Source: a bacterium
GTDB lineage: Bacteria; Babelota; Babeliae; Babelales; RVW-14
Direction: 5' to 3'
Assembly: GCA_043822925.1 (NCBI GenBank)
Contig: JBDRBF010000002.1
Location: 14,562 to 78,561 of the forward strand
DNA length: 64,000 nucleotides
Shown here: positions 20,588 through 21,229 of the stretch, in pieces
Layout of the letters: every line of letters begins with the position of its first letter
How positions within the stretch are numbered: the stretch's first letter is position 1
Translations under genes and position numbers: made by a program
The notes under the pieces: generated by a model
The model's input: only the letters and a program-made list of their open reading frames with translations
The model's database searches: none
Told to the model about the DNA's origin: nothing

Positions 20588-20661
20588 TATTCTGTCGTCA
20601 TCCTGACCGTGCCCGGCGTAGCCTTGTGCGAAGCCTGGGTCTCGATCTGGGATCCAAGTCC
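20588..20661 (+). repeat. Palindromic element with a nested GCCCGGCGTAGCC...GCCTGGGTC module
   Basis: TATTCTGTCGTCATCCTGACCGTGCCCGGCGTAGCCTTGTGCGAAGCCTGGGTCTCGATCTGGGATCCAAGTCC. Confidence 0.85.
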
Positions 20662-20692
20662 TATTTCCTTCCTACCTATTTTTCCCCTGCTC

Positions 20693-20733
20693 TATTCTGT
20701 CGTCATCCCAGACTTGATCTGGGATCCAAGTCC
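20693..20733 (+). repeat. Minimal palindromic element (8-bp stem, 5-nt loop)
   Basis: TATTCTGTCGTCATCCCAGACTTGATCTGGGATCCAAGTCC. Confidence 0.85.
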
Positions 20734-20763
20734 ATATAAAACTAAAAAATAGGGGTATCAGTA

Positions 20764-21069
20764 ATGAAAATATACGTTGTTTACATTCTTACGAATAAAC
20801 CACGTGGTACATTGTATGTAGGGGTTACTAATAATTTAAAATGTCGAATGCGAGAGCATAGGCTTGGGTTGGTTGATGGGTTTACTAAAAAATATGATTT
20901 AAAAATGTTAGTGCATGTTGAGCAGTCTGATTCTGCCATTAGTGCGATATCCAGAGAGAAACGACTTAAAAGTTGGAATCGGAAGTGGAAAATCGATTTG
21001 ATTGAAGAGAATAATCCGACGTGGGAAAACTTGTACGAAAAGATTTTTGGTCCTGATGATGAGGAATAA
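20764..21069 (+). CDS. GIY-YIG nuclease superfamily protein (small stand-alone URI domain)
   Basis: KIYVVYILTN...GTLYVGVTNNLKCRMREH (GIY...YVG...R...H/E pattern); 101 aa. Confidence 0.8.
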   Translation: MKIYVVYILTNKPRGTLYVGVTNNLKCRMREHRLGLVDGFTKKYDLKMLVHVEQSDSAISAISREKRLKSWNRKWKIDLIEENNPTWENLYEKIFGPDDEE

Positions 21070-21070
21070 T

Positions 21071-21136
21071 GACCCAGGCTTCGCCAAGGCTACGCCGGGC
21101 AAGCTCTGGATCCCAGATCAAGTCTGGGATGACGAC
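21071..21136 (-). repeat. Inverted composite palindromic element
   Basis: GACCCAGGCTTCGCCAAGGCTACGCCGGGC...GGATCCCAGATCAAGTCTGGGATGACGAC. Confidence 0.85.
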
Positions 21137-21229
21137 ATTTATGATAAATAATGAGAATAGGACGATAGAAATTCAGGATGTTTTACTATAAAGAATTAGG
21201 CTGTTTTATATGCCCATAGGCAATAGGCT

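Follow-up and report, generated by a model that had tools for sequence, protein, structure and literature searches.

The window analysed here is a 64,000-nucleotide stretch of contig JBDRBF010000002.1 (positions 14,562 to 78,561, forward strand) from assembly GCA_043822925.1, a bacterium of the Babelota lineage, whose proteins find their closest relatives in Dependentiae (TM6) and Babeliales metagenome-assembled genomes. On its plus strand, at 20764-21069, lies ssn, a gene for a 101-amino-acid single-domain GIY-YIG nuclease of the SsnA type, identified from the open reading frame and a Pfam search, and on both sides of the gene stand hairpin repeats of the kind called Ssn-related motifs (SRMs). 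The left neighbour of this cassette is holB (19687-20553, plus strand), which encodes the DNA polymerase III delta' protein and whose product is 100% identical to that of NCBI locus tag ABH827_00245; the right neighbour, on the same strand, encodes a short ComEC-related membrane protein of 275 amino acids (21230-22057). The cassette is very probably a member of the Ssn system described by Chenal et al., that is, an SsnA-type GIY-YIG nuclease with its cognate SRM hairpins on both sides.

The gene is enclosed by a perfect inverted repeat of 31 nucleotides (nt), the left arm of which occupies 20698-20728 on the plus strand and the right arm 21107-21137, where it forms the right SRM, whose head lies on the minus strand. 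A preliminary description of this DNA had reported an inverted repeat of 29/29; the exact inversion stands, and the length becomes 31/31. Two direct copies on the left and an inverted composite copy on the right had likewise been described, and both are present. The outer left copy (20588-20661, plus strand) is a disrupted long SRM with the head TATTCTGTCGTCATCC, a GC-rich inner module, here called module B (20611-20641), and the tail GATCTGGGATCCAAGTCC. The inner left copy (20693-20748, plus strand) is intact: a CGTCAT head, the palindrome ATCCCAGA/TCTGGGAT around a 5-nt loop, a C and a CAAG tail give the layout CGTC/ATCCCAGA-CTTGA-TCTGGGAT/C-CAAG, and a short 3' tail enters the ssn leader. 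The head TATTCTGTCGTCATCC is common to the copies at 20588 and 20693 at 16/16 positions, and their tails (20641-20661 and 20713-20733) are identical at 20/21. On the right, module B recurs inverted at 21071-21101 (minus strand), beginning one base past the ssn stop codon; its recurrence had been noted before with a single 2-nt indel, whereas the comparison with 20611-20641 gives a 1-nt indel plus 3 mismatches at the edge. The SRMs that flank the gene face outward, the left head being on the top strand and the right head on the bottom strand. No recognisable flanking target or target-site duplication was seen at the cassette ends.

Folded as single-stranded DNA (ssDNA), the short left copy forms a hairpin with a stem of 8 base pairs (-7.2 kcal/mol, z -3.1 against shuffles) and the right composite forms two hairpins (-17.5 kcal/mol, z -3.9). 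The long left copy at 20588-20661 folds no better than shuffles (z -0.97), because module B takes the place of the left stem arm and the loop.

The protein encoded between these repeats matches the GIY-YIG family PF01541 over residues 4-77 of its 101 residues (E 7e-14), which agrees with the 101-codon GIY-YIG gene of the preliminary description, and the Pfam search found in it no second domain and no other family. Residues Y7, Y18, G20, R28, H32 and E65, which include the catalytic Tyr, Tyr, Arg, His and Glu, do not vary among 10 aligned homologues, one of them a Neisseria sequence. A protein search returned more than 3,200 homologues of about 95-100 amino acids across phyla, many of them about 60% identical. 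NCBIfam holds no model specific to the Ssn family, no relative with a solved structure was found in the PDB by sequence, the defence-system models of PADLOC gave no match, and Rfam gave no RNA family at 19000-23000 with E up to 1. Within the 64 kb there is a single ssn copy and no paralogue (tblastn). A candidate second GIY-YIG gene near 60800, raised by a 40-nt direct repeat, proved to be a chance match within an unrelated open reading frame of 272 amino acids.

Members of the Ssn family are GIY-YIG proteins with a single domain and a length of about 94 amino acids (CDD cd10448; Chenal et al., Nat Commun 2025, PMC11893778). SsnA of N. meningitidis binds the hairpin repeat NTS (CGTCATTCCCGCGMAVGCGGGAATCYRG) in single-stranded DNA only and cuts upstream of it; cutting depends most on the three nucleotides that directly precede the palindrome on its 5' side and binding on the C that directly follows it, and mutation of the GIY/YIG tyrosines or of the metal-binding site abolishes cutting (PMC11893778). 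In the same survey 71% of the ssn homologue genes had at least one NTS-like SRM nearby, and 42% were flanked on both sides (PMC11893778). The repeat in the window, CGTCAT-ATCCCAGA-loop-TCTGGGAT-C, parallels the NTS CGTCATTCCCGCG..CGGGAATC, with the GTC 5' and the C 3' of the palindrome kept. A direct comparison with Neisseria came from a tblastn search of PLSDB, which hit two gonococcal chromosomes filed there as plasmids. Each chromosome holds a single homologue, 50% identical to the window protein over 90 amino acids (E 9e-32), amid 11 canonical NTS within 3.3 kb, where 0 would be expected by chance. From this NTS context and its length of about 94 amino acids we infer that the gonococcal protein is the ssnA orthologue. 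One of these records, NZ_CP119142.1, is a 2.17 Mb chromosome mislabelled as a plasmid, and in it the closest ATG upstream of the ssnA-like frame (L005 1496-1510) is in a different frame, which could mean a frameshift or an alternative start.

The two systems are alike in their single-domain GIY-YIG protein of about 95-100 amino acids, in the CGTCAT head followed by a palindrome and a 3' C, in repeats that stand on both sides of the gene and are also scattered, and in a host-associated bacterium as carrier. They differ in that the carrier here belongs to the Dependentiae, that the stem reads CCCAGA in place of TCCCGCG, and that the flanks form a perfect outward 31-nt inverted repeat, whereas the Neisseria copy just after the gene is a direct one. 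The window also contains loop-expanded and composite variants, with one copy in frame in an essential gene, and the activity of its nuclease is a predicted one.

The bracket is not confined to this locus. All five Dependentiae-type ssn loci with DNA at hand (the window and the loci L001, L004, L026 and L027) are bracketed by outward SRMs, in five different gene contexts: in L001 the gene lies between tdk on one side and a radA-like gene on the other, in L004 it follows AAA_14/DUF4143 genes, in L026 its neighbour is a PDDEXK_9 gene, and in L027 yfiO and a UPF0102 gene adjoin it. At these loci a plus-oriented SRM stands 10-139 nt before the ssn start and a minus-oriented one 8-38 nt after its stop when the window is included (8-21 nt in the others); in L026 it overlaps the 3' end of the gene as annotated. 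Other phyla contributed 13 homologue loci: at eight of them a minus-oriented SRM stands 8-57 nt after the stop codon, and at five of those eight a plus-oriented copy also stands no more than 100 nt upstream. The proposal that the nuclease gene forms a unit with the dispersed hairpin repeats is thereby upheld, and the refutation test set for it in the preliminary description turns out in its favour, since homologues at other loci and in other genomes carry the flanks, among them those of the four other Dependentiae-type genomes.

Further SRMs are dispersed through the window, in keeping with a repeat type defined as a hairpin-forming palindrome of 20-50 nt with many copies. About ten copies with both head and tail occur in the 64 kb, at 7183, 9559, 19804, 20588, 20693, 21137 (minus strand), 26762 (minus strand), 28995, 37910 and 60256. 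In form they combine the oriented head (T)TGTC(G)TCAT with a palindrome that starts with the AT of the head and with the tail C-CAAG; stems and loops differ between copies, some loops being enlarged to long imperfect hairpins. The head motif was observed 6 times against 0.54 expected in the window and the tail motif 3 times against 0.07. A scan for GTCAT plus an exact-stem palindrome plus C gave 7 matches where controls averaged 2.6; over long spans its criteria are too loose, and it is not counted as support. With up to 3 mismatches allowed, the 31-mer itself has only two sites in the window, those bracketing ssn (0 expected in 100 shuffles), and no other identical short copy is present in it; some 8 further copies have only head and tail in common, with loops that are different or expanded. 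To call the terminal repeats identical to a dispersed repeat, as had been done, was therefore an overstatement.

Among the dispersed copies, the one at 26627-26762 (minus strand, head 26750-26760) is a long composite SRM with nested GC-rich modules that include a third copy of module B at 26664-26696. The copy at 28995-29059 (plus strand) is a variant of the form TTGTCATCCTGGA...ATCCGGGATCC, that at 7183-7214 (plus strand) reads GTCATCCTACGAAGC...GTAGGAT, and that at 60256-60290 (plus strand) has a GTTAT head. A second stem type, GTCATCCTGAACTTGTTTCAGGAT, is found at 37910-37933 (plus strand) and is identical to ssn-flanking copies in the Dependentiae genomes L001, L026 and L027. The GTC 5' and the C 3' of the palindrome are present in the cassette flanks and in the window copies at 9561, 19813 and 28995, as well as in the SRMs of L001, L004, L026 and L027. 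These critical flanks are incomplete at 60256, which has the C but a GTT head, and at 7183 and 37910, which have the GTC and lack the C after the palindrome. The heads lie on the plus strand at 7183, 9561, 19813, 20592, 20702, 28995, 37910 and 60256, and on the minus strand at 21133 and 26760. Eight of ten are thus on the plus strand, a number too small for significance. The positive GC skew of this strand over nearly all of the window identifies it as the leading-strand sequence, hence as the lagging-strand template. A strand bias of the SRMs would fit an action on single-stranded DNA at the replication fork.

Several points weigh against assigning the cassette to the Ssn system. The published SRM search pattern, HGTCWYN(0-2)YYVSBRHN(0-5)WNVSBRGN(0-2)RNCYNB, has 0 matches on both strands of the window. 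It misses the window SRMs because the stem CCCAGA breaks its YYVSBRH block, and it is a hand-made search aid that captures 71% of the homologue loci, not a definition (PMC11893778). In Neisseria the SRM directly after ssnA is direct and not inverted, so the outward-facing bracket is not universal. The cleavage position and the ssDNA specificity of the Dependentiae enzyme, moreover, would be extrapolated from enzymes about 50% identical to it.

The preliminary description had regarded the association of a GIY-YIG gene with such repeats as a new pairing. Ssn and its SRMs had already been described together (Chenal et al. 2025, PMC11893778). The same authors likened NTS-ssnA-NTS to an insertion sequence and to REP/RAYT, and raised the idea of a mobile unit, without insertion evidence (PMC11893778). 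As both the arrangement and the likeness were in print, the claim of novelty is out of date. What is new here is the presence of Ssn in Dependentiae, the outward bracket at unrelated loci, the cassette-free junctions, an in-frame SRM in holB and a filled/empty pair of SRM sites. The literature collection searched contained no later paper on Ssn and nothing on such repeats in Dependentiae. The system is thus extended to a phylum of protist-associated bacteria, and the published pattern under-detects the repeats, their stems here being of different sequence.

The cassette-free junctions come from four relatives. The interval from the holB stop to the ComEC-like start (20554-21229, 676 nt), which contains the entire cassette, is absent from them: in L019/L020, L022, L023 and L024 the gene after holB either overlaps it, by 4-17 nt, or follows after a gap of 5 nt, compared with 676 nt in the window, and the junction holds neither ssn nor repeats. 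The comparison of syntenic loci that had been proposed thus yields the locus without the cassette. Since holB abuts the downstream orthologue in all four, the 676 nt represent extra DNA in the lineage of the window, and the SRM-ssn-SRM unit of about 680 bp appears to have been inserted in this lineage, cleanly between the holB stop codon and the ComEC-like start codon. The relatives are distant, their HolB being about 41-53% identical to that of the window (44-47% in alignment A1), and they do not define the exact ends of the cassette. Their downstream orthologues are 271-293 amino acids long and align to the open reading frame at 21230-22057 from residue 1 to the end; the ComEC-like gene is therefore naturally short, and the earlier view of a 5'-truncated gene hit by a disruptive insertion into comEC is ruled out. 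At the level of strains no empty site was found in a metagenome scan with HolB: the sole same-species contig, L025 (Ga0180007_10170906, 99.4% identical), also carries the cassette. Past the right SRM this contig runs into the reverse complement of the holB SRM (L025 1336-1398) and then ends, a join that most likely arose when the assembly switched at the repeat.

The SRM within holB is a solo copy with a long loop (19804-19893, plus strand). Its 90 nt amount to exactly 30 codons, in frame from codon 40, and the extra residues of HolB begin at that codon, position 19804 being the first base of the SRM head. HolB has 288 amino acids in the window and 244-266 in nine aligned homologues; the insertion amounts to 24-30 residues against eight of the nine and to 14 residues against P0138, whose own insertion at this place is shorter and unrelated; the other eight have nothing there. 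The tail of the left cassette SRM (20717-20748) recurs at 19864-19895 as the 3' tail of the holB SRM with an 88% match. The repeat sits between Cys37 and a CxCxxC motif. Ogata et al. 2000 reportedly described the Rickettsia palindromic elements (RPEs), hairpin repeats in frame within the protein-coding genes of an intracellular bacterium. The 90-nt copy in holB resembles them as an in-frame hairpin insertion. RPEs are not discussed by Chenal et al., who count Rickettsia among the SRM-rich genera and report that only 2% of the NTS in Neisseria are intragenic (PMC11893778).

Another footprint is internal to the window. A segment of about 88 nt is duplicated (8582-8669 and 9514-9664, alignment A4); the second copy is split by a 63-nt SRM (9559-9621, plus strand) and the first is contiguous, with the paralogous empty site at 8627/8628. 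The junctions of the 63-nt SRM show only an ambiguous TT at both ends. The duplicated segment corresponds to a terminator-like hairpin and the last codons of a 648-amino-acid gene at 9624-11570, and as a direct repeat it flanks an IS200-like unit (8673-9462). That unit encodes a Y1 transposase of 143 amino acids (8895-9326, plus strand; PF01797, E 1e-27) and has as its arms GC-rich inverted repeats (8673-8722 and 9402-9462, 96% complementarity) containing GTAGCCCGGGCACGAG; it is RAYT/REP-like in the classical sense and shares the window with the Ssn/SRM unit. Its arms and module B of the ssn cassette have CGTGCCCGG in common, and module B may belong to this second repeat family.

These natural footprints, namely the four cassette-free junctions, the in-frame SRM of holB and the internal filled/empty pair, can serve as substrates for asking whether Ssn spreads its own hairpins. 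One extension of the Ssn assignment, which was also the reading of the preliminary description, takes the SRM-ssn-SRM arrangement as a transposon-like unit with Ssn as the mobilising enzyme and the solo SRMs as non-autonomous derivatives, in the style of RAYT/REPIN or of the "peel and paste" of IS200/IS605. We regard it tentatively, as a possibility that falls short of being probable. By homology with the characterised enzymes, Ssn would ignore duplex DNA and RNA and would bind the hairpin when the DNA is single-stranded, with the palindrome and the adjoining 3' C as its recognition features, and it would cut the same strand about 3 nt 5' of the CGTCAT head. The predicted cuts lie at 20697/20698 on the top strand and at 21137/21138 on the bottom strand. 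As the heads face outward on opposite strands, both would fall at the outer edges of the cassette, which are the exact ends of the perfect 31-nt repeat. Hydrolysis by a GIY-YIG enzyme leaves no covalent intermediate, so mobility would depend on the replication or repair functions of the host, such as the repair of gaps or a switch of template at hairpins. The unit might then be genuinely mobile through an ssDNA nuclease of the hydrolytic GIY-YIG type acting together with host replication or repair, which would excise or copy the hairpin-bounded DNA; this too we hold as conceivable at less than even odds, on circumstantial evidence.

In favour of mobility is the absence of the cassette from the same junction in 4/4 relatives, together with the presence of the same bracket around homologues in five unrelated Dependentiae contexts. 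The perfect repeat ends exactly at the positions homologous to the N. meningitidis SsnA cut site, a filled and an empty version of the 63-nt SRM exist within a duplicated segment, and the solo SRM in holB bears the tail of the left cassette end. As to the features expected of an autonomous transposon with non-autonomous derivatives, the terminal inverted repeats match at 31/31, the dispersed copies match them in head and tail and not over the whole sequence, and presence or absence is seen both at the holB junction and in the filled/empty pair. Near-identical stems also accompany ssn in different phyla. In a Patescibacteria genome and a Kazan-group genome (the pair L008 and L009, 4305-4330) the SRMs are identical; in a Paceibacteria metagenome-assembled genome (L015) the SRM GTCATTCCCGCGAAGGCGGGAATCCAGG, at 3933-3955 and 4279-4301, is almost the Neisseria NTS; and in a Bacteroidia genome (L012) the stem nearly equals the CCTGAAC type of Dependentiae that is also present at window position 37910. 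This suggests horizontal co-transfer of nuclease and repeat.

Against mobility it must be set that a hydrolytic enzyme without a covalent intermediate has no known way to rejoin strands, and that the documented activity of Ssn is site-specific cleavage of ssDNA, with no strand transfer reported (PMC11893778). The window holds one ssn copy only, no clear target-site duplication was found, and the distance of the empty-site relatives (HolB about 41-53%) leaves room for a stepwise build-up of the cassette. Elsewhere the stems on the two flanks of ssn often differ (L001, L007, L009 and L012); the 31/31 identity seen here is by comparison a local feature, which suggests a recent event. If mobility were true, this would be the first case in bacteria of a DNA element moved by a GIY-YIG enzyme, with a mechanism that forms the counterpart to RAYT/REPIN, and the window would record three fresh events: the cassette between normally overlapping genes, the 90-nt copy of the left end in holB, and the filled site of the 63-nt SRM.

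The comparison with REP/REPIN and RAYT (TnpA_REP, an IS200-like Y1 HUH enzyme) is close in architecture. In both cases a single-copy nuclease gene is bracketed by an inverted short hairpin repeat that is dispersed between genes, an oriented conserved head precedes the hairpin (GTAG in REP, GTCAT here), the hairpin is recognised in ssDNA, as predicted for the window enzyme, and composite clusters resembling BIMEs occur. The chemistry differs, as the HUH-Y1 enzyme forms a covalent 5'-phosphotyrosine intermediate that permits rejoining and the GIY-YIG enzyme is hydrolytic; the flanked gene here is the GIY-YIG one and not an HUH-Y1 gene, the Y1_Tnp gene at 8895-9326 being separate. With IS200/IS605 the cassette has in common the subterminal hairpins recognised in ssDNA, the small size and the lack of long terminal inverted repeats of the DDE type. 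The ends of IS200/IS605 lie on the same strand and are unlike each other, whereas the heads here lie on opposite strands, and the catalytic domain differs.

Tandem arrays of SRM 5' halves (head and left stem arm, with a period of 21-31 nt) were observed on the outer side of complete SRMs beside ssn in three unrelated genomes, at 5751-5865 and 6315-6362 of L004, at 4305-4373 and 4492-4559 of L009 and at 4311-4367 of L006. They may stem from successive rounds of cutting and repair, or from slippage where the hairpin forms.

A different role for the same cassette would be a domesticated host function of the kind proposed for Neisseria, in which Ssn and the SRMs restrict or shape the recombination of ssDNA from transformation, replication or repair, the repeats being targets or regulatory sites. 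We consider this rather doubtful. In its favour, SsnA with NTS modulates natural transformation in N. meningitidis (PMC11893778). The open reading frame in the window is intact with its catalytic residues conserved, and the cassette is kept in the 99.4%-identical strain from an independent metagenome (L025). Dependentiae are host-associated bacteria, and a host function would be in keeping with this. SRM-rich genomes are enriched among symbionts (PMC11893778). Such a function leaves unexplained why the ssn locus differs from genome to genome and yet the bracket is always kept, and this organism is not known to be competent. The adjacency to a ComEC-related gene is probably coincidental, because holB and the ComEC-like gene are neighbours in relatives that lack ssn. 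The biological role of Ssn could be the spread of its repeats, the trimming of incoming or replicating ssDNA, or both.

It is highly improbable that a resident GIY-YIG gene was merely surrounded later by unrelated REP-like or MITE-like palindromic repeats colonising the region. Hairpin repeats from at least two families do accumulate in the intergenic regions of the window, one family being REP-like and placed around the IS200-like transposase gene, and module B may come from this REP-like family; the association nevertheless recurs across phyla in a fixed orientation 8-57 nt from the stop codon, ssn is not resident at this locus in the relatives, and the published survey found at least one SRM near 71% of homologues and SRMs on both sides of 42% (PMC11893778). 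A free-standing GIY-YIG homing endonuclease of the I-TevI or phage Seg type that cuts a duplex cognate allele, to which weak matches to PHROG 314 and 7168 (E about 5e-4, residues 1-34 only) could point, is just as implausible: such enzymes have the catalytic core in common with Ssn, and the linker, C-terminal DNA-binding domain, duplex substrate and intron or phage location are theirs alone, whereas the window protein, 101 amino acids in all, has neither linker nor DNA-binding domain, does not lie in an intron, intein or phage, reaches 22.3 bits with TIGR01453 (residues 6-32 only), the cutoff of which is 56, and has characterised relatives that do not cut double-stranded DNA (PMC11893778).

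Downstream of the ComEC-like gene, at 22072-24201 on the minus strand, lies a gene for a cysteine-rich protein of 709 amino acids. In the relatives L019 and L022 the gene at the equivalent position codes for a eukaryote-like protein of the IBR/RING type and lies, with respect to holB, on the opposite strand.

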